Shown: positions 25,658 through 43,958, numbered from the stretch's first letter. The stretch is DNA of 64,000 nucleotides from Elusimicrobia bacterium RIFOXYA2_FULL_39_19 (GCA_001800285.1 MGVC01000005.1:18476-82475), one strand, 5' to 3'. Made by a program: numbers and translations. Notes: generated by a model not told the origin, from the letters alone.

Positions 25658-25669
25658 ATTTTTTTCCTG

Positions 25670-26191: not shown

Positions 26192-26192
26192 A

Positions 26193-28040
26193 TTACTTTC
26201 CTAAAAAAACGTACAACAGAATGGTTAAACCCATAATGCTCATGGCAAGGTAAATATGCATATTACCTGTATGCATCAGTGCTAACGCTGAAGCGAAAGC
26301 ATTCACAATAGCTTTTCCCCAGTCATAAATATCAAACACTTTTTTCTGGGCCAGCGCATAAGTTTGATCAAATATTTTTATTTCCTTAATAGTCTGGTAA
26401 AAATCTACGCCTGTTACCCTCTGGTTTTCCGGCAGCACTTCTCCGCCGATAAATATTTTATGCCGTTTTATTACAGACCCGAGACTGAAACTCGCCAGGA
26501 AAATAATAATGCCTATAATAATACACGCTATCAGAAGCATTGTGGCCAGTTCCGGCTGCCAGAAACCAATAAGATTTCCGCTTAACTGCAGATTAAATGC
26601 TGATAATGAAGGAATAATAAAATACTTTAAAGGAAGCGCAAAGGCAAACACGCCAAACACAATACAAAGCCCGGCAAGTAAAAGCTGGGGCAGCCACATC
26701 TGCCAGTTTACTTCGCCTTTTTGTTCATTTTTTTTCTGAGCGAAAAATATTGCATGAATAAGTTTCATAAAGCTTGCCAGTGTAAGGGCGGACCCAAACA
26801 TAGCCGCCACCAAACACACTAAAGCAATAATTTGAAATTTGGGTGATGCATTTTGAAATTGTGTTATCAGCCCCTGGTAAATCATCCACTTGGAAACAAA
26901 ACCGTTAAATGGCGGAACACCTGAAATAGACATAGACGCTATAAAAAACGCCGCAAAAGTCAGCGGCATGCCCGCTTTGCCTGCCAACGCGCCCAGTTTA
27001 TCTAAATCTGTGGTACCGGTTTTCTTTTCTATGGAACCGCCGCATAAAAAAAAGCAGGATTTGTATATTGCGTTATTTAACATATGAAATATTCCGCCTG
27101 CTATGCCCACCGGGTTTCCCGTGGCAAGGCCTAATATCATATAACCAACTTGTGAAACAGCGTGATAGGAAAGCAGTTTTTTCAGGTCATGTTGTATCAT
27201 GGCCATAAAAACAGCGGCAATAATCGTAACTGCACCTATAAACATAAGAAAAGCCGTTAACGGCAAACTTAAAGAAAACAAATTAAGTGAAATTCTGGCA
27301 AGCAGATAAATACCCAGCAGTTTATCCAGTGATGCCGGAAGAAGGGCAATTACCGGGGCAGGCGTTACAGGAGCCATATCTGGTATCCATGTATGAAAAG
27401 GCATAGCCCCTGCTTTTGCAAACGCTCCTATAGCCAAACATAAAAACGCTGTAAGAGCCAGCGTTGAATCTGCGGTTGAAAGAAATATTTTATCCATCTG
27501 CAAAGTACCGGTTAAAACCCAGATAATTGCAATACCTAAAATCATAAGGCAGTCTGAACCACCTACTATGATAAAGGTTTTCTTTGCCGCATCTTTTGAA
27601 TCCGGCGAATTTGATTGTATGAGAACATAAAGCGTTAAACCCAGAAAACCCCAGAAAACAAGCATTAATATCAGATTGTTTGCCAGCACACAGCCCAACG
27701 CCGCACTTATTGACCATAAAACAGATGTATAATAAAAACTTGAAATTGAAAATTTGTCTGTTTTAGGAAAGAATTTTGTTGAATATAGTATTACCAGTAT
27801 ACCAAACAAAGCAATGAACAGCACCAGAAAACGGTTGAAATTATCTATACGGAAAAGTTCTAAACCAAAAAGCTGAAAGTTAACGGGATTTGTTCTAAAA
27901 ATAATAAAAGTCATCAGAAATACAGCAATGGAACCGGCAAGTGCAAGCAGCTCGGCAATTAGCCTCTGCTTTTTAGGAATAACTGCGCAGACAAGCCCTG
28001 CGACAAACGGCACAGCTAATAAATATAAAATTAAATCCAT
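26193..28040 (-). CDS. MrpA/NuoL/MbhH-like large antiporter-type subunit
   Basis: 615-aa polytopic protein with WIPDMAPVTPAPVIALLPASLDKLLGIYLLARI and HAVSQVGYMILG motifs of complex-I subunit 5 family. Confidence 0.8.
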   Translation of the reverse strand: MDLILYLLAVPFVAGLVCAVIPKKQRLIAELLALAGSIAVFLMTFIIFRTNPVNFQLFGLELFRIDNFNRFLVLFIALFGILVILYSTKFFPKTDKFSISSFYYTSVLWSISAALGCVLANNLILMLVFWGFLGLTLYVLIQSNSPDSKDAAKKTFIIVGGSDCLMILGIAIIWVLTGTLQMDKIFLSTADSTLALTAFLCLAIGAFAKAGAMPFHTWIPDMAPVTPAPVIALLPASLDKLLGIYLLARISLNLFSLSLPLTAFLMFIGAVTIIAAVFMAMIQHDLKKLLSYHAVSQVGYMILGLATGNPVGIAGGIFHMLNNAIYKSCFFLCGGSIEKKTGTTDLDKLGALAGKAGMPLTFAAFFIASMSISGVPPFNGFVSKWMIYQGLITQFQNASPKFQIIALVCLVAAMFGSALTLASFMKLIHAIFFAQKKNEQKGEVNWQMWLPQLLLAGLCIVFGVFAFALPLKYFIIPSLSAFNLQLSGNLIGFWQPELATMLLIACIIIGIIIFLASFSLGSVIKRHKIFIGGEVLPENQRVTGVDFYQTIKEIKIFDQTYALAQKKVFDIYDWGKAIVNAFASALALMHTGNMHIYLAMSIMGLTILLYVFLGK

Positions 28041-28042
28041 TT

Positions 28043-29257
28043 TTATTCCGTAATACCCATTTTCTTTTTCAGTTCCCGGGTTTTTTCCTGGCTGAGTTTT
28101 ATTAAATCACTGCCGCCTAATATTTTCTTATTGGTGTTTTTATCAATTACAACGCATCTTTCTGTACAGCAATAGCACGGGTCTACCGCTCCTAAGGTGA
28201 TAGCGGCGTCAGAAATAGTTCCCTTGATTGCGGTAATTTCATTTGTTGGCACATTTACATAAGAAGGGGCGCGGATTTTATGCCTTACCGGCCTGTTGGA
28301 ACCGTCTGAACGCACAAAGTGGAACACTTCCCCTCTGGGCGCTTCGTGCCGGCCTATGCCTTCACCTGCAGGAATGTTTTTTATTTTAAGATCAAAATTG
28401 CCTTCCGGCTCTTTTTTCAGGCCGTTTAAACAACCGCGTATTATTTTCACAGATTCGTACATCTCTAAAACACGTACTACAATTTTATCAAAGATATCAC
28501 CGTTAACGGCAGTAATAACTTTCCAATCTACCATACCGTAAGCGGCATATGGATTATCCCTGCGGATATCAATATCTACGCCGCTTGCTCTTGCTAGCGG
28601 GCCGACAGCGCAGAAATCTATAGCTTCTTTTTTTGTAAGCGGACAGATGCCTTTGGCTCTGGCTTGAATTACCGGGTCATCCATGACAGCGCCCTTGAAA
28701 AGGTCTATATAAGGAAGCAGGCCATCAAGCATTTTTTCCATTCTGGGAATATCTTCATTCAAAATATCTAAACGGACCCCACCGATTTTAAACATTGAAT
28801 AATGCTGGCGGTTACCGGTAATGTACTCCATAACATCTAATAACGGCTCTCTGGCTTTCCAGACCCACATCCATACAGTATTGTATCCTATAAAATGCCC
28901 CGCAAGTCCCAGCCAAAGCAAATGCGAGTGCAGTCTTTCAAGTTCGCCAACTATGGAACGGATATATTTGGTTCTGTCGGTCACTTCTATGCCTGCAAGA
29001 TCTTCTACGGCATTTACATAAGCAAACGGGTGTGAAGTGGAACAAATACCGCAGATTCTTTCAACAGTGAAAGCTACCTGGTCAAAGTGTTTGCTTTCGG
29101 AAATTTTTTCTATGCCACGGTGGTTATAACCGATTTCTATATCCAGTTTTTCCACTTTTTCGCCGTTTACAAACAGCTTGAAAAATTCAGGCTCTTCCTG
29201 AAGCGGATGATACGGCCCTATCGGTATAACAGTTTGTTTTTTCTTTTCTTCTTCCAT
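28043..29257 (-). CDS. Group 4 [NiFe] hydrogenase large (catalytic) subunit (NuoD/HycE/MbhL-like) with intact Ni-Fe ligands
   Basis: N-terminal RICGICSTSH (L1 RxCGxCxxxH) and C-terminal DPCYCCTER (L2 DPCxxCxxR) both present; 404 aa. Confidence 0.85.
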   Translation of the reverse strand: MEEEKKKQTVIPIGPYHPLQEEPEFFKLFVNGEKVEKLDIEIGYNHRGIEKISESKHFDQVAFTVERICGICSTSHPFAYVNAVEDLAGIEVTDRTKYIRSIVGELERLHSHLLWLGLAGHFIGYNTVWMWVWKAREPLLDVMEYITGNRQHYSMFKIGGVRLDILNEDIPRMEKMLDGLLPYIDLFKGAVMDDPVIQARAKGICPLTKKEAIDFCAVGPLARASGVDIDIRRDNPYAAYGMVDWKVITAVNGDIFDKIVVRVLEMYESVKIIRGCLNGLKKEPEGNFDLKIKNIPAGEGIGRHEAPRGEVFHFVRSDGSNRPVRHKIRAPSYVNVPTNEITAIKGTISDAAITLGAVDPCYCCTERCVVIDKNTNKKILGGSDLIKLSQEKTRELKKKMGITE

Positions 29258-29329
29258 TTGCTTTCCCTTGCCCCGTCTGCCTTTGCAGGACGGATAATTC
29301 TAATGCTCTAAGCTCTAATTTCTAATGCT

Positions 29330-29764
29330 CTACTTCTCCGTCTGCCTTAACGGGTATTTGCCTTCCGGCCAGTCTTCTGCCAGAAGCAATCTTTTCATAT
29401 TCGGATGATTTTTAAAATTTATGCCCAGCATTTCCCAGATTTCACGCTCAATCCATTCGGCTCCGCGGATAAGCGGTGTGATAGAATCTATTTCCGGTTT
29501 ATCTTTTTCGTTTAAGTAAACGCGCAGGGTTATGACTTCGCCTGTTTTGTCATAAGAAAAATGGTACATTATTTCAAACCCGGTCCTTAAATGAACCCCG
29601 GTGGCTGTAATGAAACGGCTTTCTAAACCGTTAAACATTATTTTTGTGCATTCAATGATGTCATGCGGATTTATTTCCAGATAATGGCGTTTCTCGTTTT
29701 TCTTGAAATAATTTTTTACTTTATTTCCCAGTTTTTCTCTTGCTTTTTCTATAATGCTTTCCAT
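29330..29764 (-). CDS. NuoC/MbhK-like 30-kDa subunit
   Basis: EREIWEMLGINFKNHPNMKRLLLAEDW matches NuoC signature. Confidence 0.75.
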   Translation of the reverse strand: MESIIEKAREKLGNKVKNYFKKNEKRHYLEINPHDIIECTKIMFNGLESRFITATGVHLRTGFEIMYHFSYDKTGEVITLRVYLNEKDKPEIDSITPLIRGAEWIEREIWEMLGINFKNHPNMKRLLLAEDWPEGKYPLRQTEK

Positions 29765-29775
29765 TTTATTCCTGT

Positions 29776-30201
29776 TTATAAACCTTTAAGTTTTTTTATC
29801 AGCTTTACCACGCCCATTATCATGGCTTCAGGCTTCGGCGGGCAGCCCGGGACATACGCATCAACGGGTATTATTTCATCCAGTGGTTTTACGAAATTAT
29901 AGGAATCCCTGAACATATTACCTCCGCAGGCGCAGCTGCCTATGGCTATAACAACACCGGGCTTGGGCATCTGTTCATAAACTTCTTTTATCCTGGGGGC
30001 TGTTTTCATGTTTGGTACGCCGGTAACCAGCATGGCATCGGCATGTTTTATACTGCCTACCAGAGATATACCAAAACGTTCCACGTCATGCCTGGGTGTA
30101 AGCAGGTCAAGAATTTCTATATCGCAGTTGTTGCACGGGCTACAAGCCGCGTGATAAACCCAGATTGATTTGGTAAGCGCTTTGATAACTATTTTTTTCA
30201 T
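29776..30201 (-). CDS. [NiFe] hydrogenase small subunit / NuoB/MbhJ-like (proximal 4Fe-4S)
   Basis: CSPCNNC...GSCACGGNMF...VPGCPPKPE, the conserved NuoB/HycG Cys pattern; 141 aa. Confidence 0.8.
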   Translation of the reverse strand: MKKIVIKALTKSIWVYHAACSPCNNCDIEILDLLTPRHDVERFGISLVGSIKHADAMLVTGVPNMKTAPRIKEVYEQMPKPGVVIAIGSCACGGNMFRDSYNFVKPLDEIIPVDAYVPGCPPKPEAMIMGVVKLIKKLKGL

Positions 30202-31110
30202 TTATAATCCGATTAACGCCAGAATTACTGCAATTAAGGACAATCCTGCGCCGTAGGTCCAGAAAAACTTTACGGCCTGGTCTATTCTTAAACGCGGATT
30301 TGTGTTTTTTATAAGTATTATTATTACAAGAACTCCAGCAAATTTAAGTAAGTTGTACAAAAAATCTGCAGAAGGCATAAACAGGGCTACAAGAAAACTA
30401 GGCAAAACAAAAAGCATAATCCATTTTGTAAGCTTAAATATTGCCAGAGGCGTGCCGGAATATTCTACTGCCGGGCCTGCAATAATTTCCTGTTCCGCTT
30501 CCGGAATGTCAAAAGGTGTCAAGCAAAGTTTTGCCTGGATACATAAAATTGCCACAATAAAAGCAATTATGCCTGAAGCTGATGTAATAACTGCCGGATT
30601 TGCCAACTGATAAGTTACTATGTCGCCCATTCTTATACTGCCTGTTTTTATGATGACAGTGAGAATACTTAAAATAAAAGGAATCTCATAAGAAAGAATT
30701 AGTTTCATTTCTCGGCTTGCGCCGATAGATGCTATAGGATTATTGGAAGCAAAACCGCCAATTATTACCGCTATTGAAGGAATGGCCAGCAGATAGATTA
30801 CTACAATTAAATCTCCTATAAAGGTTTTGCCGGGTACAAGCATGGCATTCCATACTATTACTGACACCAGGGTGATAGCGGCCAGCCCGAAAACCGGAGC
30901 GGACAAAAACGTAAATACAGAGGTCTGTTCCGGCACAGAAATTTCTTTGCCCAGCAATTTTACGAAATCATAAACCGGTTGTAACAAAGGAGGGCCTTTA
31001 CGCCACTGGACCCTGGCTGATACCTTTCTGTCAATATAAACAGCCAGCATTCCGAAAACTGCGGAAAACAAAAAACCCGGAAAAATTAAATAATCAAAAA
31101 ATGTGCTCAT
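30202..31110 (-). CDS. NuoH/HycD/MbhM-like membrane subunit
   Basis: RKVSARVQWRKGPP N-terminal motif of NuoH/ND1 family; 302 aa, polytopic. Confidence 0.8.
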   Translation of the reverse strand: MSTFFDYLIFPGFLFSAVFGMLAVYIDRKVSARVQWRKGPPLLQPVYDFVKLLGKEISVPEQTSVFTFLSAPVFGLAAITLVSVIVWNAMLVPGKTFIGDLIVVIYLLAIPSIAVIIGGFASNNPIASIGASREMKLILSYEIPFILSILTVIIKTGSIRMGDIVTYQLANPAVITSASGIIAFIVAILCIQAKLCLTPFDIPEAEQEIIAGPAVEYSGTPLAIFKLTKWIMLFVLPSFLVALFMPSADFLYNLLKFAGVLVIIILIKNTNPRLRIDQAVKFFWTYGAGLSLIAVILALIGL

Positions 31111-31111
31111 T

Positions 31112-31645
31112 TTATTTTACTACTCCGGCTTTTGCATCTTTTTTCCATGGTATACCATGGACTGCCAGGTGGTCATTTATTATATAAATGTTTTTTTCTG
31201 CCGATTCTTCAACTTCAACATATTTAAGCGCTTTGTTTGGGCAGGTTTCTACACAGAGCGGGTCTTTATCATCAGACCTTCCCGCACAATAATCACAACC
31301 GGAAGATTTATAAGGAAGTATGTCAGGATATATTGTACCAAACGGGCAAGCTACGCTGCAGGATTTACAGGAAGTGCATTTCATCATAAACCGCTGTAAT
31401 ATACCCGCATCATCTTTGCCCAGGGCTTCCTGCGGGCAGGCATTAACACAGAACTTTTCTTCGCATCTTCTGCAGACTACGTACTGGGCCGCTTTTGAAA
31501 GCATCTTTTCCGGGCCGTTGTTTGTTATAGGCGTTTTTAAAAGGTTTTCTGTGTTATGATAAAAGTAACTGCATTTGGCAGAACAGCACTTATCCTGATT
31601 TTTGCATTTGTAGCAGATTTCTATGTCTAAAAGTATTCTTTTCAT
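31112..31645 (-). CDS. Poly-ferredoxin-like 4Fe-4S cluster protein (electron-transfer subunit)
   Basis: Several CxxCxxCxxxCP-type motifs (CVNACP, CKSCSVACP, CDYC...CVETCP); 177 aa. Confidence 0.65.
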   Translation of the reverse strand: MKRILLDIEICYKCKNQDKCCSAKCSYFYHNTENLLKTPITNNGPEKMLSKAAQYVVCRRCEEKFCVNACPQEALGKDDAGILQRFMMKCTSCKSCSVACPFGTIYPDILPYKSSGCDYCAGRSDDKDPLCVETCPNKALKYVEVEESAEKNIYIINDHLAVHGIPWKKDAKAGVVK

Positions 31646-31647
31646 GT

Positions 31648-32475
31648 TTAATCCCAGATTTCCGGTTCATCCTTCAGTTGTTCATAAGTGAAAACCGGAC
31701 CATCTTTACAACAATAGTGAGGGCCGACACCGCAATGCCCGCATTTTCCCAGCCCGCAGCTCATATTTCTTTCCATGGAAAGATACGTATTTTCAGGGTT
31801 ATAACCCTGCTGGTATATTTTAAGCGTGGCAAATTTCATCATTATCGGCGGCCCGCAGACAATTACCGCGGCATTATCTCTGTCTGCATTTACTTTATCA
31901 AGCAAACAGGTGACTAAGCCCACTGTTTCATCCCATTTTACATTTTCCGGACATTTATCTACGCTTCTTACAATTTCAAGGCCCTTTATTTCTTTCCATT
32001 TCGGGAAAAGATATTTATAAACTACATCATCCGGTGTTTTGGAACCGTAACATAAAGTAATTTTTTTGAATTTTTCAATTTGTTCAATCAAAGTCAGAAG
32101 CAGTGACCGCAGAGGAGCCAACCCTACCCCTCCGCCGACTATCAGCACTTCATGGTTAAAATATTTTTCTACCGGGTAGCCTTTGCCGTAAGGGCCTCTT
32201 AAACCAACAGTATCTCCGGGTTTAAGGGCATGAATTTTTTCTGTGTTTACACCCACCTTCATTATGGTAAATTCCATGGTATCTTTAACTGAAGGAGAAG
32301 ATGACGGCGTAAAGGCAGATTCTCCGATACCCGCTATTGTAACCAGCATGAACTGGCCGGTTTGAAAAGCTATAGGCTGTTTGGGCCTGAAGACAAAAGT
32401 TTTGATGGAAGCTGTTTCATCAATTACTTTTTCAACCGTTGCTTCTATGGGAAGATAGGGATTAACCTGGCTCAT
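31648..32475 (-). CDS. FAD/NAD(P)H-binding oxidoreductase with C-terminal [2Fe-2S] (sulfhydrogenase gamma / AsrB / PyrK-like)
   Basis: FNR-like fold signatures (FRPKQP...GQFMLV; GGGVGLAPL nucleotide-binding loop) and C-terminal CGLGKCGHCGVGPHYCC cluster motif; 275 aa. Confidence 0.7.
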   Translation of the reverse strand: MSQVNPYLPIEATVEKVIDETASIKTFVFRPKQPIAFQTGQFMLVTIAGIGESAFTPSSSPSVKDTMEFTIMKVGVNTEKIHALKPGDTVGLRGPYGKGYPVEKYFNHEVLIVGGGVGLAPLRSLLLTLIEQIEKFKKITLCYGSKTPDDVVYKYLFPKWKEIKGLEIVRSVDKCPENVKWDETVGLVTCLLDKVNADRDNAAVIVCGPPIMMKFATLKIYQQGYNPENTYLSMERNMSCGLGKCGHCGVGPHYCCKDGPVFTYEQLKDEPEIWD

Positions 32476-32479
32476 ATAG

Positions 32480-33490
32480 TTAACTTTCTGCGCTTAGTTT
32501 TTTTACTACGTCGCGGATATCAATTTTGCCGGGGCATACAGAAATACAGCGGCCGCAGCCGGTACAAGCATAGATGCCAAAATTAGTTTTTCTGTAATTT
32601 AATTTGCACTGGTACCTGTTTCTGAATCTTTCATGGATTTTCGGCCTGGCATTTCCGCCGCCGGCCACTTTGCCGTGAGTAGTGTAATGGCAGGCGTCCC
32701 AGTAGCGATACTTAGCATTAGCTTCAGTTAAGTAGAAACAATAACAGCTGGGGCAGATGTTGTTGCAGCCGGTGCACTGAACACAGGTTTTACAGTATTC
32801 TTTCCAGCTTTCTGATAGATACTTTCTTCCTGCTAAACCCTTAAAATCAATATCTTTTATACTTTTATAATTAACATTTATGCGGTCAAGCGTTTTTACT
32901 GCAGAGTCACGCATTTCTTCTCTTTTAGATAGCTCTGTATCAACTGCATCCCTGAAAAACGCCTGGGCCTGAGCTATGATTTCTTCTGCAACAACTGAAA
33001 TCACATCTACTACATAACCGTCATCAACTGGAGAAAAATTAAGGTCAAAACTTTTATTTTCATAGGCCTGAGCAAACGGATTGCCGCCTATAAAGGTGCA
33101 GAAACAGGTATCTTTTGGGGTTGGGCAATCTGAAGCAAAGATGAGCGTATTAGCCAGCTTGTTTTCTACAAACGGGTCAGTGCATACTCCGCCTAAATAT
33201 ACTTCTTTTATTATTTTCAGGGCATTCAAGTCACAGGCTTTTACACCAAAGATTATTGTTTTCTTTTCCAAATTAAGAGAGGCCGTATCCAGTTTTTCGT
33301 TGTGATTAAAGAAAAAAGACCTTAAGGGCAGGTTGGCGCGGACATTATCGATGCTTATATCAATTGACGGGCCATTAGCGGAATACTTTTTGTAGGCATC
33401 ATTATCAGCAAGGTAGTAGATATCATTATCTACCGATAGCGTGCCTAAAAAATCGTTTAAATCTTTCTTAAAAATAAATTGTGATTTCAT
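32480..33490 (-). CDS. 4Fe-4S protein, sulfhydrogenase beta / AsrA-like
   Basis: 336 aa with CKTCVQCTGCNNICP and CTGCGRCISVCP ferredoxin motifs plus additional Cys pairs. Genomic pairing with the gamma/AsrB-like gene. Confidence 0.6.
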   Translation of the reverse strand: MKSQFIFKKDLNDFLGTLSVDNDIYYLADNDAYKKYSANGPSIDISIDNVRANLPLRSFFFNHNEKLDTASLNLEKKTIIFGVKACDLNALKIIKEVYLGGVCTDPFVENKLANTLIFASDCPTPKDTCFCTFIGGNPFAQAYENKSFDLNFSPVDDGYVVDVISVVAEEIIAQAQAFFRDAVDTELSKREEMRDSAVKTLDRINVNYKSIKDIDFKGLAGRKYLSESWKEYCKTCVQCTGCNNICPSCYCFYLTEANAKYRYWDACHYTTHGKVAGGGNARPKIHERFRNRYQCKLNYRKTNFGIYACTGCGRCISVCPGKIDIRDVVKKLSAES

Positions 33491-33623
33491 AAGATTAGTT
33501 AAATTATTTGAATTATCAGATTAAACAAAATTATTCCATTTATGTCAAGAAAATGCACTCAAAACATGCTTTTGTTAATCCACGCGGGCAGAGCCAGTGG
33601 TATTCTGTTGCCGTTTTACGGGG

Positions 33624-34343
33624 TTAGGCCTCGGTTTTTTCTATTTCTTTGGCAAGAATTACAGCTTCAGCTACGGCACGAAGGGTTTTACGGGCATCCA
33701 TACTTTTTTTCTGCAGCAGCCTGTAGGCATCTTCTTCAGAATGACCATACTGTTTCATAATGATACCTTTGGCTTTTTCTACAAGCTTGCGGGTTTCAAG
33801 CTCTTCTTTTAAAATATTTGATGTGACCAGCAGGTTCGCATTTTCTATAACTACGGCCGCCTGGTTTGCAACAGTTGTTAAGACAGCTATTTCTGAATCA
33901 GTAAACTTATGAAAAAATGAAGTATAACAATTTAAAGCTCCAATGGGTTTACCTTTTACGTCCAGCGGCACGCACAGCAAGGACTTTAAACCCAGTTTTT
34001 TTGCCATATCCTTAAATTTAAACTCCGGTTCATTTAAAACATCTAAAACCTGAATAGGTTTATTTTCCTTGAGTACTTTACCTGCAATGCCTTCCCCTAT
34101 TTTTAAAGAACCCTTTTTTATATATTCCTCACTCATGCTTTGGGTAGCTTTAATGTCCAGGGCTCCCTGCTTTACATCAAATAACATTATTGAACAGATC
34201 TCTGATTTCATTACCTGTGCGGTTACGGTGACAATAAGCTTTAAAATATCTTCCAAGTAAAGGTCTGATGTGATGGCTTTGCTGATTTTTGAGACAGCGT
34301 TAATGAAATCATTGTGGTCAGTCTTGTTTCTTGTTTTTTTCAT
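33624..34343 (-). CDS. GAF-domain plus ANTAR-domain RNA-binding antiterminator regulator
   Basis: N-terminal GAF-like region. C-terminal AKGIIMKQYGHSEEDAYRLLQKKSMDARKTLRAVAEAV matches ANTAR consensus (AKGiLM...EeAy..Lr..Sm..n.kL..vAe.v). Confidence 0.7.
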   Translation of the reverse strand: MKKTRNKTDHNDFINAVSKISKAITSDLYLEDILKLIVTVTAQVMKSEICSIMLFDVKQGALDIKATQSMSEEYIKKGSLKIGEGIAGKVLKENKPIQVLDVLNEPEFKFKDMAKKLGLKSLLCVPLDVKGKPIGALNCYTSFFHKFTDSEIAVLTTVANQAAVVIENANLLVTSNILKEELETRKLVEKAKGIIMKQYGHSEEDAYRLLQKKSMDARKTLRAVAEAVILAKEIEKTEA

Positions 34344-35377
34344 TGTATTTTTGATTGTATTTCTGCAATTTTGCAGGCTGTCTTTGATTTTCCGGTTATT
34401 TTTCCTGTTTCAAGCAGCGCAATTCCCGGGCATCTTCTACACGCTTTAATGTTACTACATTTCAAACACTCTTTGCAATCTTTTGTACTGTATTTTCTAA
34501 GCCTTTTTGCTTTTTTTGATTTATGCCATATATTTCTGAAACTTTGATTTTTCAAATTTCCAAGCGGATATAATAACTGCAAACATGGATAAACAATTCC
34601 CTGCGGTGAAATACCGGCAAAAACTTTGCCTGCATTGCAAAACAAATCAGGAACATCCTGTAATGAAACATCTGTTGAAACTTCGTACTGGTTTATCAGA
34701 TATTTATTTAACTTTTTATCCGTATAAATGGTTTTAAGCTTTTCGGCGCTTAACTGAAACCTCTGGATTGTGCAGTCACCGTTATTTTGGGGGGCAAGGA
34801 CCGGGTCAAGCCTGTATTCAAACTTATTTTTTTTGGCAAATTTTATCAGCCATTTGTAATCGTTGAAGTTTATATTCAGAAGCGGCGCTTTAATTCTAAC
34901 CGGAACCTTGTATTTCTTTAATAATTTCAATGCAACAAGTGTTTTTTTAAAAGAATTGTTTTTTGCCGTTATCTGTTCATGACTTTTTTTTCTTCCGTAC
35001 AAACTTATCTCTACAGCGCTTAACCCGATTTCCGATAACATTTTTGCGTGTTCTTTTGTTATTAAAGTACCGTTTGAAAAAAGCCGGAGATCAAAATTTA
35101 ATTTCCTGGCGTAAGCGCATAATTCTAACAAGTCTTTGCGTAAAAATATCTCTCCACCGGTAAAACATAAGTACAGGCAACCGGCGCGGGCAAGCTTATC
35201 AAGGATTGTTTTTACTTCCTTCGTGTTTAATTCGCTTTTGTTTTGTTTTATCAGGTAGCAATGCAGGCATTTCAGGTTACATCTATGCGTAAGTTCAAAT
35301 ACGGTATAAAGCGGCAGGTTATTTTTATATGCAGCTTCTGTTAAACTGTTTGATGGGCTAATCATTTTGTATTTCAA
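34340..35377 (-). CDS. Radical SAM / SPASM-domain peptide-modifying maturase
   Basis: CNLKCLHC (CX3CX2C) near N-terminus. C-terminal Cys-rich SPASM-type CKECLKCSNIKACRRCPG; 345 aa. Confidence 0.75.
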   Translation of the reverse strand: MKYKMISPSNSLTEAAYKNNLPLYTVFELTHRCNLKCLHCYLIKQNKSELNTKEVKTILDKLARAGCLYLCFTGGEIFLRKDLLELCAYARKLNFDLRLFSNGTLITKEHAKMLSEIGLSAVEISLYGRKKSHEQITAKNNSFKKTLVALKLLKKYKVPVRIKAPLLNINFNDYKWLIKFAKKNKFEYRLDPVLAPQNNGDCTIQRFQLSAEKLKTIYTDKKLNKYLINQYEVSTDVSLQDVPDLFCNAGKVFAGISPQGIVYPCLQLLYPLGNLKNQSFRNIWHKSKKAKRLRKYSTKDCKECLKCSNIKACRRCPGIALLETGKITGKSKTACKIAEIQSKIQ

Positions 35378-35624
35378 TCAAACCTTTTTCTTTCAATTCT
35401 GAAATAAACCCTGTCACATCATCAGCAGCTACTGTTTTTTCAACATCATATTCCTTTAACAGTAAATCAACCAGTTTGGCGGCACTGCACTTTTTATGCA
35501 GTTTCTGCCAGATAAAAGCGCCCACCTCATCCAATGAATGCAAACAAGATGTTCCTGTGTTTACAATATAGGCCTTGCCGTCAATAACTCTCCAGGCAAT
35601 ATTTTTTGAATGGCTTATTAGCAT
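35358..35624 (-). CDS. PqqD-family RiPP recognition element (peptide chaperone)
   Basis: 88 aa; WRVIDGKAYIVNTGTSCLHSLDEVGAFIWQKL...YDV...DDVTGFISELKEKGLI fits the PqqD/RRE pattern. Overlaps neighbours in operon. Confidence 0.65.
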   Translation of the reverse strand: MLISHSKNIAWRVIDGKAYIVNTGTSCLHSLDEVGAFIWQKLHKKCSAAKLVDLLLKEYDVEKTVAADDVTGFISELKEKGLIEIQND

Positions 35625-36412
35625 AATTTCTCCGCAGAAATATTTTTAGGAAAAAATAGTGTTTGAAAAATCAGCTTGTTTTTCATTGAGAGAATTGTAT
35701 CTATCATTTTACTTATCAATTTTGGGTCTTTACTGAAAAACAGTATGTTGGGAAGCAGTTTTTTTATAAATGCCGGGCTGAATTCATTTTTTACAAAATA
35801 CTTTTTGCTCTTTTGTATAAAACAAATCTTTTTAAGCTTCAGGGTCAGATTTGTTTTTCCGGGTTTCAGTTCTCCCCAAAATGGTGTACTGGAAGCTTTT
35901 ATTATTCCGTTAATATTTTGCACAAGAACCAGCTCATCAGAAAGTACAGCTGAAGGTTTAAACTTTTTTGCTATGGTTGACTTGCCTGCATTTGTTTTAC
36001 CAATAAATAAATTAGCAGCATTTCTGAATTTAATACCGGAAGCATGCACTAAAAAACCGTTATTTATTACAGAAAACACCGAAAAAACAACTCTCAGCAG
36101 GGAATCAAGCGAATATATGTTTTCCCTTAGTTGGGCAACAGCCTTTAATTTAGAAGTGTCAAAACTTAATTGAAAATCATTTCTTGAAAAACAATGAACA
36201 CCTTTTATGTTTTTATATGTTACTTCCTTATTCTGATTCAATTTATCAGGAACAAATACTAATTTTAAATCAAGAACTTTCTGTTTTTTGAATGATCTTA
36301 CAAAAAATGGCCCATATCTTTCCGTTATTTTATTTAGGATACTACGATTTACAGAATTATTTATCTGTAAATTTAATGCAAGTTTTGTACCTAAAAGAAT
36401 TTTATAATTCAC
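35618..36412 (-). CDS. HPr-kinase-related P-loop kinase (HprK-related kinase A-like)
   Basis: GKTNAGKST Walker-A in the C-terminal half, and size/context as HprK C-terminal-domain homologues found with PqqD proteins. Confidence 0.5.
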   Translation of the reverse strand: MNYKILLGTKLALNLQINNSVNRSILNKITERYGPFFVRSFKKQKVLDLKLVFVPDKLNQNKEVTYKNIKGVHCFSRNDFQLSFDTSKLKAVAQLRENIYSLDSLLRVVFSVFSVINNGFLVHASGIKFRNAANLFIGKTNAGKSTIAKKFKPSAVLSDELVLVQNINGIIKASSTPFWGELKPGKTNLTLKLKKICFIQKSKKYFVKNEFSPAFIKKLLPNILFFSKDPKLISKMIDTILSMKNKLIFQTLFFPKNISAEKLC

Positions 36413-36441: not shown

Positions 36442-37554
36442 TCAGATGGTTTTTACCCACCATCTTCTGGCTTTCAGTTCCAGTGCGAGTTTTTTATCTT
36501 CTAATTTCAATTTTGTTTCATCTACAGCTTCCGTTATATAGATAACGCTGTTTTTGCTTAAATCCACCAGCTTTTCTGTTGGCACTCTTTTATTTTCACT
36601 GTCAATTACTATTTTAAGTTTGGGCCTTGTGGGTAGTCCGGGGTTTGAGCCTACAACCCGGGCTATTTCGTCAGTATTTACCCGGACATAACTGCCTATA
36701 GGATAAAGTGAAACCTTTTCTATGAATAACTTTACCAGATTCATATCAAAATTCATGTCAGCCATATCAATCATTTTCTTAAGCGCGTCATGTGACAGTA
36801 TGCTTTCTCTCCAGGACCGCGGATGGGTAAATGCTTCAAACACGTCAGCTACGCTGATAATTTTTGACATTATGTCTATTTCTTCTCCGGAAAGACCTTT
36901 TGGATAACCGGCGCCGTCTCTGCGTTCGTGTACCTGGGATATAATTACGGAAACTGCGGTTTTGGTTTGCGGAGACATTATTACATTTTCCAGCAATTGT
37001 TTATTATACATAGTGTGTTTTTTGATTTCGCTGAATTCTGAACCATTTACCTTGCCTTGTTTTGCCGCAAGTTCTACAACTTTAAGCATTCCGATGTCAT
37101 GCAGGAATGCTGAAATGGTAAGTTTTTCCAGCTGTTCTGAAGAATAGCCGTAGGCAAAACCAAGGGCTGTAGAAAGAATAGCGGTATTAACACTGTGGCT
37201 ATGCAGATATAAGTCCGGCGTAGTATATCTGCACATGGCAATCAGTTCATCATTGTTGGCTACTATTAAAGCTATTATTTTTCTTGCTACATTTAAAAGC
37301 GGGTTTATGTCTACTTTGTTTTTTTCAATATTCAGAAGGAACTTTCTTTGCGTATCAATACCTTCCGTATAGACTTTTTCCGCTGAATCTACACGGTGTA
37401 TCTCCTGAACAAACTGTACCTTGTCCAGTTGGGGCTCTTCGGTTTTTTCTTCAACAATTTCTTCGGGTTCTAATTCGGATACTTCTTGAGGGGTTAAATC
37501 TTCAGTGGATTTATTTTGGACGGATTTTTTCTTAAGTATGTCTGAAAGTCGCAT
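36442..37554 (-). CDS. HD-GYP domain c-di-GMP phosphodiesterase-like protein
   Basis: HSVNTAILSTALG...LHDIGM...HERRDGAGYPKGL, the HD and GYP signatures. Confidence 0.75.
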   Translation of the reverse strand: MRLSDILKKKSVQNKSTEDLTPQEVSELEPEEIVEEKTEEPQLDKVQFVQEIHRVDSAEKVYTEGIDTQRKFLLNIEKNKVDINPLLNVARKIIALIVANNDELIAMCRYTTPDLYLHSHSVNTAILSTALGFAYGYSSEQLEKLTISAFLHDIGMLKVVELAAKQGKVNGSEFSEIKKHTMYNKQLLENVIMSPQTKTAVSVIISQVHERRDGAGYPKGLSGEEIDIMSKIISVADVFEAFTHPRSWRESILSHDALKKMIDMADMNFDMNLVKLFIEKVSLYPIGSYVRVNTDEIARVVGSNPGLPTRPKLKIVIDSENKRVPTEKLVDLSKNSVIYITEAVDETKLKLEDKKLALELKARRWWVKTI

Positions 37555-37614
37555 GGTTTAATATATAAAATACTTGGCTGTATGTCAATTTATCTGAAGG
37601 CAGATTTCTGCACT

Positions 37615-39687
37615 TCAACCGTCGTAGGGCAGTTCAATGATAAAGGTAGTTCCTTTCTTTAGTTCGCTTTCAATTTCTATATTCCCGCCATGCTCTTTAA
37701 TAATTCTGAAACTTGTAGATAAACCAAGCCCGGTACCTTTTGTTTTGGTAGTAAAAAATGGTTTGAATAACTGTTTTATGTTTTCTTTGGAAATACCAGG
37801 CCCGGTGTCTTTTACTTTTATCTTGAGATTTTCTTTGTTACTGTCTTCCAGCATTATACTGATAATTCCCTGGCCGGGAATAGCCTGTATGGCATTTAAT
37901 ATAATATTCATTAAAACTTGTTTTATCTGGGCGGGGTCTGCATAAATAGTAATGTCTTTTCTCGAATATTCTTTGACTACTTTTATATTTTTCTTTGCCG
38001 CTTCATGGCTTAAAAGCATAAGAATATTTTCAATTATATAATCTACATTTATTCTTTCAAACTGGTTCTTTTGAAGCCTGCTATAATCTGAAAGGCTATT
38101 CAATATTGTTTCCAAATGATCCAGTTCCTGAGGCACAATACTGCTGAACTTTTCCCGGTACTCTTTATCTTCAAATTTCCGAGTTAGAAGCTGAGTAAAA
38201 GTTTTTATAGCTACCAGCGGATTTTTTATTTCATGTACTACTGTGGAAGCCAGTGTGCCCAATGCTACCATTTTATCCGCCTGATACATGCTTTTTTCAA
38301 AATTACGCAATTGTTCGGTAAGCCTGGCGTTTTCTATAGCAACTGAAGACTGGGATGCTATTGAAGAAATAAAATCCAGGTCCTGCCTTAAAAAAGCATC
38401 TTCCGACATTTTTTCTCCAACACAAATTATTCCTATAAGTTCTTTATTTAATTTTACGGGAACCATGAGCATACTTTTAAGTTTAAATATTTTTCTTTCA
38501 AATTCACCTTTAATTTCATTAAGTTCGTTAAAAAATATTTTGTTTTTGTGTTTTTCAAACCAGCTTGTAATGTAGTCACCTTTTTCAAAACACACTTCTT
38601 CACTGTTAAGTAGATTAAAATTTCTGGACATTCTTATTGTATATTTTTCATTTTCTTCATTAATAAGAAGAATGGAAATCTTTTTTACAAACAGGGTATT
38701 GGTTATGGTATCAGCTATATGATCCAGTAAGGGGCCCAGCACCATCAAAGAACTTAATTTGTCGCTGAAGGCAGATAATATTTTCTGAGAATCATACTTT
38801 GTCTTGAAAAACAGTTTATCTACTATGTTTTGAAGCCAATTACGCACAGGAACAAAACCTGCAGCAACAATAATAGCAGTAGCCGTATTAACAAGAATTG
38901 AATTAAACCTTAAATATTCCAGGCCAAATGCCAGAGAAACGGCAACTATTAGTGTATATATACCTGCTACTATGGTAGTCAGTGCTGTATAAACTATAGC
39001 GCGTTTAATGACTACGCGGATATCAAAAGCCTGGTATTTTAGAATGGAATAAGCAATAAGCCCGGTCCAGATAATATTTATAAATCCGCTAACAGGATAA
39101 ATTTCAAATCCAAGAGAAAGAGCAAACAATGTAAATCCGAAAAAAACAAAAAGACTGATACCGATAAAAAAATATTTTAACTGGTTTTTAACCATGAATG
39201 ATTCTGTAACTTTAAAGGTCTTAACAAGATGGGCTAATCCATAGGATATCCAGAAAGCAACATTTAATGCAGACAGGATGTAAAGCAGAGTAGGTTTTGG
39301 TGCATAGGTCACACCTACTCTAATGTATTCTTTTGTCATTAACCCAAAAAAACCCAATATTGTAAAAAGTATTCCTATACCGTAGGACAGGTATATTAGC
39401 TTTTTGTTTCTTTCACTTATATTTCTTGATAATATCAGCATAAAATGGAATCCAGCTGCTGGTCCTAACAAGAAACCAAATCTGAATGTATCTGCCCATG
39501 TTTTGGCTAATACAGCATTTGGCATGACGTATAGTCCAAATAAGTCAAAAGACCACATTGCAATACAAAACGCAAAAAAAGCAAATATTCTGTTAAGCGG
39601 GCTTTTTGTATTTTTTTGAAACACAAAAACAGACAGGACTAAATTGACTATTGTTGAAGTTAACCAGGGAATGCAATGTATGTTCAT
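37615..39687 (-). CDS. Multi-TM sensor histidine kinase (HisKA + HATPase_c)
   Basis: N-terminal ~7 TM helices. H-box STVVHEIKNPLVAIKTF. G-boxes DTGPGIS and GTGLGLSTSFRIIKEHGG. Confidence 0.8.
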   Translation of the reverse strand: MNIHCIPWLTSTIVNLVLSVFVFQKNTKSPLNRIFAFFAFCIAMWSFDLFGLYVMPNAVLAKTWADTFRFGFLLGPAAGFHFMLILSRNISERNKKLIYLSYGIGILFTILGFFGLMTKEYIRVGVTYAPKPTLLYILSALNVAFWISYGLAHLVKTFKVTESFMVKNQLKYFFIGISLFVFFGFTLFALSLGFEIYPVSGFINIIWTGLIAYSILKYQAFDIRVVIKRAIVYTALTTIVAGIYTLIVAVSLAFGLEYLRFNSILVNTATAIIVAAGFVPVRNWLQNIVDKLFFKTKYDSQKILSAFSDKLSSLMVLGPLLDHIADTITNTLFVKKISILLINEENEKYTIRMSRNFNLLNSEEVCFEKGDYITSWFEKHKNKIFFNELNEIKGEFERKIFKLKSMLMVPVKLNKELIGIICVGEKMSEDAFLRQDLDFISSIASQSSVAIENARLTEQLRNFEKSMYQADKMVALGTLASTVVHEIKNPLVAIKTFTQLLTRKFEDKEYREKFSSIVPQELDHLETILNSLSDYSRLQKNQFERINVDYIIENILMLLSHEAAKKNIKVVKEYSRKDITIYADPAQIKQVLMNIILNAIQAIPGQGIISIMLEDSNKENLKIKVKDTGPGISKENIKQLFKPFFTTKTKGTGLGLSTSFRIIKEHGGNIEIESELKKGTTFIIELPYDG

Positions 39688-39787: not shown

Positions 39788-41125
39788 CTAATATTTGTAC
39801 GCCTCTTTTATTGACATATACAACTGTTCATAGATGGGTTTTGAAACCGGGACCGACTTACCAGCACTTCCTTTTGTATAGGTTCTTAAGTACAAATCCG
39901 CCAAGCATTCATAAAATTTTTCTCTTGGTAATTTCGTAGGAAATATTGAATGAATAAAATCAAAAAGATTATAATTGTAAGTCACAAATTCTTTGTACCT
40001 TTCATGATACAAATCTGTTCCGGGTAACGGCGTCAGGACAGAAAATATCGGGTGCGGAAGATTCATTTTTTCAACATAATCACCTAACTCTATAAAATCC
40101 TTTTCCAAGTAATCGGGATTTACAATGAACTGGGCAACTACTGTAATATTATTTTGGTGCAAAATATTTATAGCTTCTTCATTGTTTTTTACTGAATTGC
40201 TTTTGTTAAAAACCTTTAGTTCTTCATCCCTGAAAGACTCAATACCCAACAGTACCATTTCCGCTCCAATCTCTTTCCATTTTGCTATTAAATCGGGATG
40301 TTTTACTATAGTATCTGACCTGGCAATAAGTTTGTATGTCTTTTTTATTCCTTTTTCTTTTAGTAATTCGTACAGTTTTTCTGCTCTGTTAACATCATGC
40401 AGAAAATTATCATCACAAATACTTATATAAGGTTCTTCTATAGTTTGAATCTCTTTAACAATACTTTCTGCGCTTCTTAATCTATACCGGCCCCTTTCAT
40501 GCTTCCAGACTGCACAGAAATTACATCTAAACGGGCAACCTCTTGAAGTTAGTAAAGATGCTACCGGCCTCCAGGCTGCCCTGAAATATTTTTCACGGTA
40601 TTTTTTGGTTAAATGTCTTACTGGGAAGGGCATATCGTCAAGATTTTCCATAAAATCTCTTTCCTGAGTTATTTTAAGTTTACAATTTTCCTGAATACCT
40701 ATACCCTTTATTTTTGAAAAATCTTTTTTAAATTCTACTGCATCAACTATTTCACTGAATGTCGCCTGGCCTTCACCAATCACAACAAAATCTATGCAGG
40801 CTTTATTAAAATCCTCAGGAATTAGTGTAGGGTGGTGGCCGCCTACTACAGTAATAACATCTTTATTGAATTTTTTAATGTTTTCAAATATTTCACAAGC
40901 CGCATATACATCGGGAGTTAAAGCTGTTATGCCTACAATATCTGGTTTAAATGTGTCCAGGTCTTCTTTCAATAGTTTATCTATCCTCATATCCAGGATT
41001 TTAACGTTATGTTTATCTAAAACACCTGCTGCAATTGTTTCCAGAGCTAAAGGTTCTGGCAAATATAACACCCCGGATCCTACTAAATTTTCATTTAACG
41101 GCGGTTGAATAAGTAAAATGTTCAT
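39788..41125 (-). CDS. B12-binding-domain radical SAM enzyme (class B)
   Basis: N-terminal Rossmann-like B12-binding region (MNILLIQPPL...). CPFRCNFC radical SAM motif; 445 aa. Confidence 0.7.
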   Translation of the reverse strand: MNILLIQPPLNENLVGSGVLYLPEPLALETIAAGVLDKHNVKILDMRIDKLLKEDLDTFKPDIVGITALTPDVYAACEIFENIKKFNKDVITVVGGHHPTLIPEDFNKACIDFVVIGEGQATFSEIVDAVEFKKDFSKIKGIGIQENCKLKITQERDFMENLDDMPFPVRHLTKKYREKYFRAAWRPVASLLTSRGCPFRCNFCAVWKHERGRYRLRSAESIVKEIQTIEEPYISICDDNFLHDVNRAEKLYELLKEKGIKKTYKLIARSDTIVKHPDLIAKWKEIGAEMVLLGIESFRDEELKVFNKSNSVKNNEEAINILHQNNITVVAQFIVNPDYLEKDFIELGDYVEKMNLPHPIFSVLTPLPGTDLYHERYKEFVTYNYNLFDFIHSIFPTKLPREKFYECLADLYLRTYTKGSAGKSVPVSKPIYEQLYMSIKEAYKY

Positions 41126-41926
41126 TTAATTCTCCTGTAATAAATTTATTTCCAAACATTTTCTGTTAAAAAGATCTACTAACGAACAGTTCGGTACTAC
41201 TATCGGTTTTCTTTTGTCTAATAACATTAAAACAGTTTCAAGCACCAACAGAGATCCCGCTAAGGAACATATAGGGCTTATTACTGAAGGAGTTATATCC
41301 CTGTTTGTCAGCTCAACTATTTTGTTGTGAGGAATATAATCGGGAAGTTTCACGCTGAGTTTTTTGAATATTTTATAAAAATCCGGCTCGGTGCCGGCAT
41401 CAACACCAAAAAACTTTTCCATTGTCAAACCTTTTGGGTCAAACACCAGCAATGGACTGCTATAAGCAATAGCACCTGACAAAATAACATAAAGATTTTT
41501 CTCCCGGGCCTTCGGATAAAGGGCCATACGGGCTTCAAAAGTGAAAAACTCTATGGCATCTATTACCAGATTGGCGCCCTGCAAAAACTCATCCACATTA
41601 TCTTTATTTACTCCTTCAGAGAAAACATCTACTTTAATTTCTGGATTGATATCTCTAACTATTTCAGCTATTACTTCCGCTTTTTTTCTGTTTAAGGTTT
41701 TAATGGAAGAACCAAACTGCCTGTTAAAATCTGTTGCTGAAAAAACTTCAGGGTCTGCGATTTTTATATGCCCCACACCCAATCGGGCAAGGCGTTCTGC
41801 CGGAAAGCCCCCTACTCCACCGACTCCCGCTATGCAGACAGTAGAATTTTTTAGTTTTTCCTGTTCTGCTTCTGTAAGCAGGCCTATGTTTCTGTTGGTA
41901 ATTTCAGTATATGCGGGTTTATTCAT
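41126..41926 (-). CDS. ThiF/MoeB/HesA-family E1-like adenylyltransferase
   Basis: CIAGVGGVGGFPAERLARLGVG nucleotide-binding motif; 266 aa. Confidence 0.7.
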   Translation of the reverse strand: MNKPAYTEITNRNIGLLTEAEQEKLKNSTVCIAGVGGVGGFPAERLARLGVGHIKIADPEVFSATDFNRQFGSSIKTLNRKKAEVIAEIVRDINPEIKVDVFSEGVNKDNVDEFLQGANLVIDAIEFFTFEARMALYPKAREKNLYVILSGAIAYSSPLLVFDPKGLTMEKFFGVDAGTEPDFYKIFKKLSVKLPDYIPHNKIVELTNRDITPSVISPICSLAGSLLVLETVLMLLDKRKPIVVPNCSLVDLFNRKCLEINLLQEN

Positions 41927-42483
41927 AGTATAAAAGGAATCAGGGCATACGTTTCTTTACGGTATTGCCTGTATTCATCCCCCAATTTAGAAATTAGTGC
42001 TTTTTCTTCAAACGGAATTCTGGAATAAATAGCAAGCACCATCAGTACAGCTCCTGAGGAAAGCATGTAATATGCATTTGCTATCAAAGCTACCGCTATC
42101 ACATCAATTACATTGCTTAAATAAACGGGATGCCTTAAAAACTTATACGGGCCTTTTCTAATTACCCTATGGTTTTCCCGTATTTCTATATCAGCGCTCC
42201 AGAATTCTGATAAAGTTGTTGCTCCCCACCTTTTGAGAAAAAAACGCGCAACCCACAACACCATACCTATGGCAGCAACAGTATAATTTATCTGCCTGTT
42301 TACTACCAGAAATTCCACAACTACCAGTACAAGGTAACTGGAATAAGCAATACCCAGAAAGTTAATGGTCCACTTGTCGCGGATTTCTCCTTTAGTTTTT
42401 TTCTTTTCATAAAGACTTATTTCAAAATACCTAAGCAAAATCATAAAAACCATAAACAACGCAAAAAAAATCTGATAATTCAT
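41923..42483 (-). CDS. Isoprenylcysteine carboxyl methyltransferase (ICMT)/PEMT-family membrane methyltransferase
   Basis: NHRVIRKGPYKFLRHPVYLSNV C-terminal motif; multi-TM, 186 aa. Confidence 0.65.
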   Translation of the reverse strand: MNYQIFFALFMVFMILLRYFEISLYEKKKTKGEIRDKWTINFLGIAYSSYLVLVVVEFLVVNRQINYTVAAIGMVLWVARFFLKRWGATTLSEFWSADIEIRENHRVIRKGPYKFLRHPVYLSNVIDVIAVALIANAYYMLSSGAVLMVLAIYSRIPFEEKALISKLGDEYRQYRKETYALIPFIL

Positions 42484-42499
42484 GTCTTTTTTCTCCTTT

Positions 42500-43897: not shown

Positions 43898-43958
43898 TCT
43901 GTCTTCACCTTTCCTTTAAGTATTTTAAATCCAATGAGAAGCGTGTTAAAACAGTATG

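Follow-up and report, generated by a model that had tools for sequence, protein, structure and literature searches.

A radical SAM peptide-maturation cassette in an Elusimicrobia genome, probably separated from its precursor gene

What does a peptide-maturation cassette act on when no precursor peptide is encoded beside it? The question is raised by a gene set in a 64,000-nucleotide (nt) stretch of the Elusimicrobia bacterium RIFOXYA2_FULL_39_19 genome (GCA_001800285.1, MGVC01000005.1:18476-82475; hereafter the window, with positions counted from its first nucleotide). Here, genes for a P-loop protein, a PqqD-type recognition element (RRE) of the kind used by systems for peptides that the ribosome makes and that are modified after translation (RiPPs), and a radical S-adenosylmethionine (SAM)/SPASM enzyme are followed by a gene for a GAF-ANTAR regulator. 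We consider the set to be, probably, an intact peptide-maturation cassette whose precursor is encoded elsewhere in the genome, with the ANTAR gene as a co-transcribed neighbour; since every catalytic motif is kept, the enzymes most likely have a substrate whose gene lies at another site. The genes concerned, with product lengths in amino acids (aa), are:

36442-37554, minus strand: HD-GYP (Pfam HD_5) protein, 370 aa, first gene of the conserved module
35618-36412, minus strand: ScmC-family P-loop protein, 264 aa, GTG start
35358-35624, minus strand: PqqD-type RRE, 88 aa
34340-35377, minus strand: radical SAM/SPASM enzyme, 345 aa, TTG start
33624-34343, minus strand: GAF-ANTAR regulator, 239 aa

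A preliminary description, made from the sequence, had named the last four of these open reading frames (ORFs), and all four appear in our ORF listing at these positions and on this strand, overlapping by 7 nt (ScmC-like/PqqD), 20 nt (PqqD/radical SAM) and 4 nt (radical SAM/GAF-ANTAR). Its domain calls are likewise borne out by Pfam and by motifs. Specifically, the 88-aa protein matches PqqD (1.3e-17), the regulator matches GAF (1.1e-19) and ANTAR (PF03861, 3.1e-21), and the radical SAM enzyme matches Radical_SAM (1.2e-21) and SPASM (6.5e-11). The CNLKCLHC motif of the enzyme has the form CX3CX2C (C33, C37 and C40), and these three cysteines, together with seven C-terminal SPASM cysteines, are invariant across 12 homologues, the window protein among them. 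Its closest solved structures are SkfB (2.7e-22), PqqE (9e-13) and CteB (3.9e-9). The CX3CX2C motif, the seven-cysteine SPASM domain and the PqqD-type RRE partner are the generic marks of RRE-dependent radical SAM/SPASM RiPP systems, which supports the earlier proposal that PqqD, radical SAM/SPASM and P-loop genes together form a cassette of the peptide-maturation type.

Related loci (L001, L002 and so on) were gathered from a genome scan, a metagenome scan and look-ups of exact proteins, and the window proteins were mapped onto them by profile and BLAST. The roughly 30 loci come nearly all from metagenome-assembled genomes of Elusimicrobiota or Endomicrobiales, and 16 of them are evaluable for gene counts. 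Across these loci the ScmC-like, PqqD and radical SAM genes occur together (the PqqD gene was found in 13 of 13 loci compared), and the recurrent module consists of HD-GYP, ScmC-like, PqqD and radical SAM/SPASM genes, with no ANTAR gene. In addition, an ORF for a peptide of 45-61 aa lies inside the cassette or right after it in 12 of the 16 evaluable loci that have ScmC, PqqD and radical SAM genes; these loci thereby show the remaining generic mark of a RiPP system, a precursor gene in the cluster, which the window lacks.

The peptide has a Lys-rich N-terminus, a Y-x-K-P-x-[IVL] motif, the motif ETAALACGKC, two to three cysteines and a C-terminal serine, the last in 15 of 16 aligned examples. 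In an alignment of 13 sequences, the residues Y, P, E, AL, C and K do not vary, nor does the terminal S; the conserved stretches are Y-x-x-P with I, V, L or F after it and E-T-x-A-L-x-C-x-K, and there are two or three cysteines. Conservation extends along the entire peptide, which hints at a conserved product and, by analogy, at peptides like PqqA and MftA rather than bacteriocins. Three members that were tested have no Pfam or NCBIfam match. A profile search with the peptide returned 2,684 clusters at E<=0.01, and within the best 120 of these the members with a source name all bear the label hypothetical and stem from Elusimicrobiota. An independent start from one 45-aa peptide led to contigs with the gene order ScmC, PqqD, peptide, S24-like peptidase, radical SAM. 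Furthermore, L008 carries a ScmC gene without PqqD or radical SAM genes and yet has the peptide directly upstream; the peptide is therefore tied to ScmC in particular.

The peptide gene is usually followed by one for an S24-like peptidase, which stands alone in some loci, is often an N-terminal fusion to a protein of 2,000-2,800 aa, and scores narrowly above the Pfam S24 cut-off (23.5 and 24.9 bits against 23.3). The fusions are found in L011-L018, at about 12.1-20.7 kb in each, and in L045 (9112-14138) N_methyl pilin-like genes and one for a 4,555-aa fn3/LTD/beta-propeller protein flank the cassette. Together, the fusions and the L045 flanks suggest that the peptide system is linked to cell-surface structures. 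In L005, a gene for a PF14907 (NTP_transf_5) nucleotidyltransferase adjoins ScmC.

The remark in the preliminary description that no precursor lies nearby holds for the whole window. Six-frame searches of the 64 kb with profiles built from 8, 10 and 16 peptides gave best E-values of 0.06, 0.07 and 0.25, none of them convincing; the match at 0.06 spans 14 residues in antisense orientation inside the HD-GYP gene and was judged a chance hit. Neither tblastn, nor a leader-motif regular expression, nor inspection of all intergenic ORFs of 20-110 aa revealed a convincing precursor in the window, and a profile search of the same 64 kb found no S24-like peptidase. To the right of the window, only some 250 nt of contig remain.

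Two relatives, L010 and L025, share this arrangement with the window, having neither peptide nor peptidase and carrying a GAF-ANTAR gene in that position. The proteins of the three loci differ by 40-60%, and all keep every catalytic residue. The ratio of ScmC identity to radical SAM identity is 0.75-0.80 in the precursor-less lineages and 0.74-0.98 in precursor-bearing pairs, and the precursor-less cassettes thus show no sign of relaxed constraint. Since the ratio falls within the precursor-bearing range and the catalytic residues are kept, we infer that the enzymes are still functional, the simplest assumption being that their precursor gene lies at another place in the genome.

An orphan or decaying cassette, in which three enzymes are left without a substrate after loss of the precursor and the peptidase, is unlikely. 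The absence of both genes from 64 kb would agree with decay, as would L001 and L002, which have lost the adjacent peptide recently relative to L020. The latter belongs to the window's own subclade (44% identity to the window for ScmC, 57% for HD-GYP and 49% for radical SAM) and has the complete set, including peptide and peptidase, whereas L001 and L002 lack both while being 71-89% identical to L020. The turnover of the peptide gene therefore appears to be fast, the gene being gained, lost or moved on short timescales. Decay is, however, hard to reconcile with a precursor-less arrangement of intact ORFs in three lineages as far apart as the window, L010 and L025, all with their catalytic residues and with a relative divergence of ScmC and radical SAM equal to that in precursor-bearing loci.

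The P-loop of the ScmC-like protein, GKTNAGKST, corresponds to residues 138-146 of the 264-aa chain. Neither the local Pfam library nor that of NCBIfam gives a match to the protein at E<=0.01. At a relaxed threshold its best NCBIfam match is ScmC of the SynChlorMet system (TIGR04249, E 0.024, 14 bits where the cut-off is 125), followed by HprK-related kinase A (TIGR04352, E 0.044, 12.9 bits against 200). We count it as a member of Pfam ScmC (PF27840) by the precomputed annotation of an identical database protein and of homologues, PF27840 having given no score in the local Pfam scan. An AlphaFold2 model computed from 21 homologues has a pLDDT of 93.2 and a pTM of 0.90, and Foldseek against the PDB places ATP-dependent phosphoenolpyruvate carboxykinase (PEPCK) first (E 4e-6, TM ~0.5) and HprK/P after it (E 2e-4). 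In the family profile, the stretch HAS...GxSGxGKsT aligns to T. thermophilus PEPCK (E 2.9e-4), and H123, G138, G143, K144, T146, D159 and P177 are invariant. The fold, the Walker-A sequence GxxGxGK[ST] and the conserved histidine before it are those of the PEPCK/HprK P-loop superfamily. The family is large, with 1,899 members at E<=1e-30 and 13,600 at E<=1e-10 in a set of 1.84 billion cluster representatives at 50% identity.

The preliminary description had called this protein HPr-kinase-like. That label is right at the level of the superfamily, the fold being PEPCK/HprK, and does not hold below it, as profile and fold are closer to ATP-PEPCK and the Pfam family is ScmC. Judged by sequence and predicted fold, the protein belongs to the ScmC family, has two domains and resembles ATP-PEPCK more than HprK/P; it is a putative ATP-dependent phosphotransferase acting on a peptide substrate. 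The HprK-related kinase A/PqqD systems, to which the description had pointed, do not include the locus by the curated models, with the P-loop protein at 12.9 bits for TIGR04352, as above, and the PqqD protein at 17.9 bits against a cut-off of 35 for PqqD_rel_X (TIGR04353).

To which transcription unit do these genes belong? The gap between the HD-GYP and ScmC-like genes is 30 nt in the window, and this gap together with the overlaps of 7, 20 and 4 nt is consistent with a five-gene operon. Two promoter-like sites flank it:

37560-37588, minus strand: sigma-70-like promoter candidate, TTGACA-17-TATATT, a consensus match only (11/12)
33520-33548, minus strand: promoter-like TTGACA-N17-TTTAAT, read from the sequence, in the gap after GAF-ANTAR

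The first site is in the interval that separates the histidine kinase gene from HD-GYP, just 5′ of the latter, in a region that as a whole has fewer sigma-70-like sites than its shuffles, and the minus-strand intergenic stretches from HD-GYP through the end of GAF-ANTAR showed nothing resembling a terminator. The promoter-like site 5′ of HD-GYP and the lack of an intergenic terminator therefore make the unit likely to be one of five genes, HD-GYP to GAF-ANTAR, and not of four. The "obligatory co-translation" of four genes put forward earlier is an interpretation of the overlaps. The 133-nt gap after GAF-ANTAR (33491-33623) is not unusually structured as RNA (z = +1.27). Since this gap has a promoter-like site of its own, the hydrogenase operon that follows is predicted to start independently at 33520-33548, which would be the 3′ boundary of the unit; L010 has a comparable TTGACA-N17-TTAAAT at the matching position. 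Rfam shows no element near the window cassette and, in relatives, none except a tRNA upstream of HD-GYP.

The GAF-ANTAR gene had been singled out in the preliminary description as a part of the gene set. In fact it follows the radical SAM gene only in the window, L010 (identical with L022 and L023; RIFOXYB2_FULL_48_7) and L025, so that the emphasis on it was probably misplaced. In all three loci, ShyB/ShyG-like hydrogenase genes come next after it. The protein has more than 5,000 homologues at E<=1e-20, many of them 60-70% identical and from Omnitrophota and other Elusimicrobiota. The cassette is absent from all five contexts of its orthologues (63-70% identity) that were examined; two of the five adjoin genes for glutamate synthase, glutamine synthetase, NAD synthase or carbamoyl phosphate synthase (CPSase)/CTP synthase, and the other three are unrelated. 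With cassette-free orthologues in a large independent family, the presence of GAF-ANTAR in the cassette is therefore most likely incidental: the protein would be a conserved stand-alone regulator that is last in the operon in one lineage by synteny. It is probably co-transcribed with the cassette without being, as far as its distribution indicates, a conserved member.

We also weighed a dedicated function, implied by the preliminary description, in which GAF-ANTAR senses a ligand, perhaps the product or a nucleotide linked to HD-GYP, and antiterminates a transcript of the system. The 4-nt overlap with the radical SAM gene and the adjacency of the two genes in three diverged genomes are what such a function would predict. 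We nevertheless regard it as improbable, considering that the gene is absent from every other cassette locus, that its orthologues stand in the cassette-free contexts just described, and that the downstream gap is unstructured and has its own promoter-like site. Moreover, tandem AxxGxx-hexaloop hairpins, the expected dual target, occur at chance frequency (three in the window by a simple pattern search, against 2.45 expected from shuffles), with none near the unit.

Our comparison of loci instead points to the HD-GYP protein, and not GAF-ANTAR, as probably the conserved fourth partner of the cassette. The protein matches Pfam HD_5 (5.1e-25) and carries both the HD and the HExxDGxGYP motifs that define the HD-GYP class, intact in the window as FLHDIG and HERRDGAGYP. 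Its gene lies directly upstream of the ScmC-like gene in 12 of 16 evaluable loci (the window, L002, L010-13, L015-18, L020 and L025). This adjacency holds in at least three flanking contexts: the upstream neighbour is a tRNA in L011-L016, a divergent GlmS gene in L010, and a histidine kinase gene in the window and L020. Cassette-linked orthologues have a specific N-terminus, MRLSDILKK, and a C-terminal domain of about 90 aa ending in RWWVK. Matches to solved structures, V-cGAP3 (5z7c, 1.5e-26) and PmGH (4mcw, 1.2e-21), cover positions 116-282 only, and none of the solved HD-GYP structures has an equivalent of the RWWVK domain. In the orthologues of L011 (8853-9971) and L013 (8734-9858) the termini are conserved whereas the catalytic motifs are degenerate, HD being changed to YN in L013 and GYP being lost in L011. 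Degenerate motifs beside a retained C-terminal domain imply, at the level of sequence, a conserved non-catalytic role, and the protein may serve as a scaffold or as a regulator that depends on cyclic dinucleotides.

It is very unlikely that the cassette modifies a protein, such as HD-GYP itself or another larger protein, instead of a peptide, although the preliminary description had raised the idea of a larger protein. HD-GYP is indeed the most consistent neighbour, and in some lineages its non-catalytic termini are more conserved than its active site; these termini, however, contain neither cysteine nor a terminal serine, unlike the peptide. Most cassettes, HD-GYP-bearing ones included, carry the small peptide, and cassettes that lack HD-GYP (L005, L019, L034 and L045) carry it still.

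A further small ORF was observed between the HD-GYP and ScmC genes of some relatives. It encodes a conserved, strongly hydrophobic product of 52-57 aa (MKVISTIAIILAVICMILGAISTIKYIGIGARTLATGSALLYLLAISLNTSK), at L001 187-345, L002 1366-1524, L012 9526-9699 and L020 9800-9958. The window, with its 30-nt gap, has no such ORF. The product could be a small membrane component, for example an export or immunity protein.

Taken together, the parts suggest how a separated cassette may work. The PqqD protein would bind the Y-x-K-P-x-[IVL] leader of the precursor, and the radical SAM/SPASM enzyme would modify the cysteine-containing core by radical chemistry, most plausibly forming thioether cross-links as SkfB and CteB do. 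The ScmC-like protein would phosphorylate the peptide with ATP, plausibly at the conserved C-terminal serine, in the manner of lasso HPr-kinase homologues, and an S24-like peptidase would cleave off the leader. GAF-ANTAR would have come to lie, translationally coupled, where the precursor usually sits.

Several observations weigh against an intact cassette served from elsewhere. No precursor or S24-like peptidase lies within the 64 kb, the search having covered neither the roughly 20 kb of contig to the left nor the remaining genome. The loss in L001 and L002 means that the peptide can disappear quickly, so that some cassettes may be orphans. The HD-GYP proteins of L011 and L013 have degenerate catalytic motifs. 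A real regulatory link of the ANTAR gene is conceivable, given its 4-nt overlap and its retention in three lineages. Finally, the functions named here are predictions from sequence and fold.

A broader, tentative reading goes beyond the preferred one. The loci may represent an undescribed, Elusimicrobiota-wide RiPP-like system made up of ScmC kinase, PqqD, radical SAM/SPASM enzyme and S24-like peptidase, often with HD-GYP, in which the enzymes of the window act in trans. Conservation along the entire peptide, in about 2,700 clusters, would then point to a constant product, for instance a cofactor, signal or cell-surface factor, and not to a diversifying bacteriocin, and HD-GYP might link the system to cyclic-dinucleotide signalling.

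TIGRFAMs, NCBIfam and Pfam all list cassettes of the ScmC type, but our searches turned up no publication on their substrate or chemistry. Our analysis adds, for one large branch of the ScmC family, a candidate precursor family, the 2,684 clusters, and a candidate leader peptidase of the S24-like type, and thereby opens to reconstitution a system that had lacked a known substrate. The window genome offers a natural case of a maturation cassette apart from its precursor. The informative additions to the preliminary description are the HD-GYP partner and the relatives' precursor and peptidase; HD-GYP probably belongs to the system and ANTAR probably does not.

The surroundings of the unit in the window, listed from the cassette outwards, are as follows.

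22200-33490 (approximate), minus strand: large hydrogenase region with ShyB/ShyG-like sulfhydrogenase beta/gamma subunits, Mbh/Mrp-type membrane subunits and a NiFe large subunit
37615-39687, minus strand: PrsK-like histidine kinase of the 7TM-GAF-HisKA type
39788-45465, minus strand: sigma54-type response regulator, beta-ketoacyl synthase, ICMT-like methyltransferase, ThiF-like E1 and B12-binding radical SAM protein
47501-47761, plus strand: conserved 83-86 aa ORF downstream of GlmS
21200-21337, minus strand: c-di-GMP-I riboswitch (RF01051)
8183-20917, minus strand: 4,244-aa ORF with a signal-peptide-like N-terminus
7071-8186: PorV/UPF0164-like outer-membrane protein
1641-2847: 1.2 kb with no ORF of at least 110 aa and no Rfam match

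A ShyB/ShyG-type hydrogenase is also found near L007, a locus with ScmC only. The B12-binding radical SAM protein is HpnR/BchE-like (239 bits against a cut-off of 650), and the block at 39788-45465 that contains it may be a separate module for lipid or small-molecule modification; in L010, only about 220 nt separate GlmS from HD-GYP, and both the block and the histidine kinase are absent there. The 83-86 aa ORF near GlmS (MTQDV...VVSWNKQKPKLEKRAFWKK...) recurs in L010 (1924-2175, minus strand) and is a matter of synteny only, without precursor features. The riboswitch scores 61.3 bits against a gathering score of 35 and lies about 280 nt upstream of the 4,244-aa ORF, after which comes the outer-membrane protein gene. 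The idea that this ORF is a homologue of the giant proteins encoded after the relatives' cassettes was rejected, as no homology was found. The 1641-2847 segment could be a pseudogene or an unannotated RNA.

How does the cassette relate to known systems? The radical SAM enzyme stays below every NCBIfam equivalog cut-off, with 135 bits for NirJ2 (cut-off 500), 129 for AhbD (500), 116.5 for MftC (265), 104 for GeoRSP (400), 102.2 for ScmE (TIGR04250; 400) and 101.5 for PqqE (381). Likewise, every NCBIfam match of the PqqD protein is below its cut-off: the best is lasso_PqqD_Bac, the Bacillota lasso B1 type, at 47 bits (80), and ScmD (TIGR04248) and the PqqD equivalog give 29.2 (100) and 22.8 (46). 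By these models the radical SAM enzyme thus falls into no known class of cofactor-maturation enzymes, in line with the preliminary description. That it is nevertheless PqqE, MftC or a haem enzyme of the NirJ/AhbD kind, or that the set is a lasso tailoring module, is highly improbable: NirJ2, AhbD, NirJ and MftC do top the NCBIfam list, and lasso B1 leads that of the PqqD protein, yet the scores are far below the cut-offs, and the neighbours scanned include no pqqA, mftA, lasso cyclase or B2 protease. A defence system was rejected, PADLOC having given only a generic likeness of the radical SAM core to viperins and a sub-threshold Cas10 HD match.

In full-text searches of the literature, neither SynChlorMet nor the pairs ScmC/radical SAM and HprK-related kinase/PqqD yielded a paper, and a search combining HPr kinase, radical SAM, precursor peptide and PqqD listed none mentioning HPr kinase. 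For the pyrroloquinoline quinone (PQQ) and mycofactocin systems, the equivalog cut-offs are missed and the window contains no small precursor ORF. The HPr-rel-A system resembles the cassette in combining a kinase-like P-loop protein with a small PqqD homologue, and both of its models give weak matches; neither cut-off is reached, and that system is not known to include a radical SAM enzyme. Because every cut-off is missed, the cassette is placed by its sequence outside the curated SynChlorMet, HPr-rel-A, GeoRSP, lasso, PQQ and mycofactocin systems.

The clusters for phosphorylated lasso peptides (paeninodin, pseudomycoidin) contain an HPr-kinase-homologue tailoring kinase and a PF14907 nucleotidyltransferase, and lasso precursors are phosphorylated by such homologues at a C-terminal serine (PMC8498205), their leaders having a conserved YxxPxL motif (PMC10368454). 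The likeness to our loci is threefold: a P-loop protein of PEPCK/HprK fold stands beside a PqqD-type RRE in a RiPP cluster; the relatives' peptides combine the leader motif Y-x-x-P-x-[L/I/V] with a conserved serine at the C-terminus; and the PF14907 gene of L005 is the partner of kinases in pseudomycoidin-type clusters. The cassette differs in that its core enzyme is a radical SAM/SPASM protein, with no lasso cyclase or B2 protease; no domain of an Asn-synthetase-like cyclase or a transglutaminase-like B2 protease occurs among the genes at 31.6-47.5 kb. The ScmC-like protein, moreover, has an extra PEPCK-like N-domain and no detectable sequence similarity to HprK/P, and its kinase activity is predicted.

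With the sactipeptide and ranthipeptide maturases (SkfB, CteB/SCIFF, AlbA), the cassette shares a full-SPASM radical SAM enzyme, an RRE and a cysteine-containing peptide. It differs from them in that the RRE is a separate protein and not an N-terminal fusion, and in its ScmC, HD-GYP and S24 partners; the scores of the window enzyme for the SkfB, AlbA and PapB models of NCBIfam are far below the cut-offs.

The SynChlorMet system (ScmC, TIGR04249; ScmD, TIGR04248; ScmE, TIGR04250; ScmF) was defined bioinformatically, is presumed to modify a peptide and is experimentally uncharacterised. In its TIGRFAM description, the canonical cassette has two radical SAM enzymes. The window unit, by contrast, has a single radical SAM/SPASM gene, adds HD-GYP and falls short of all three equivalog cut-offs, and its relatives possess a precursor and an S24-like peptidase. 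What the two share is the order of the core: a ScmC-family P-loop protein, then a PqqD homologue, then a PqqE-like radical SAM/SPASM enzyme.

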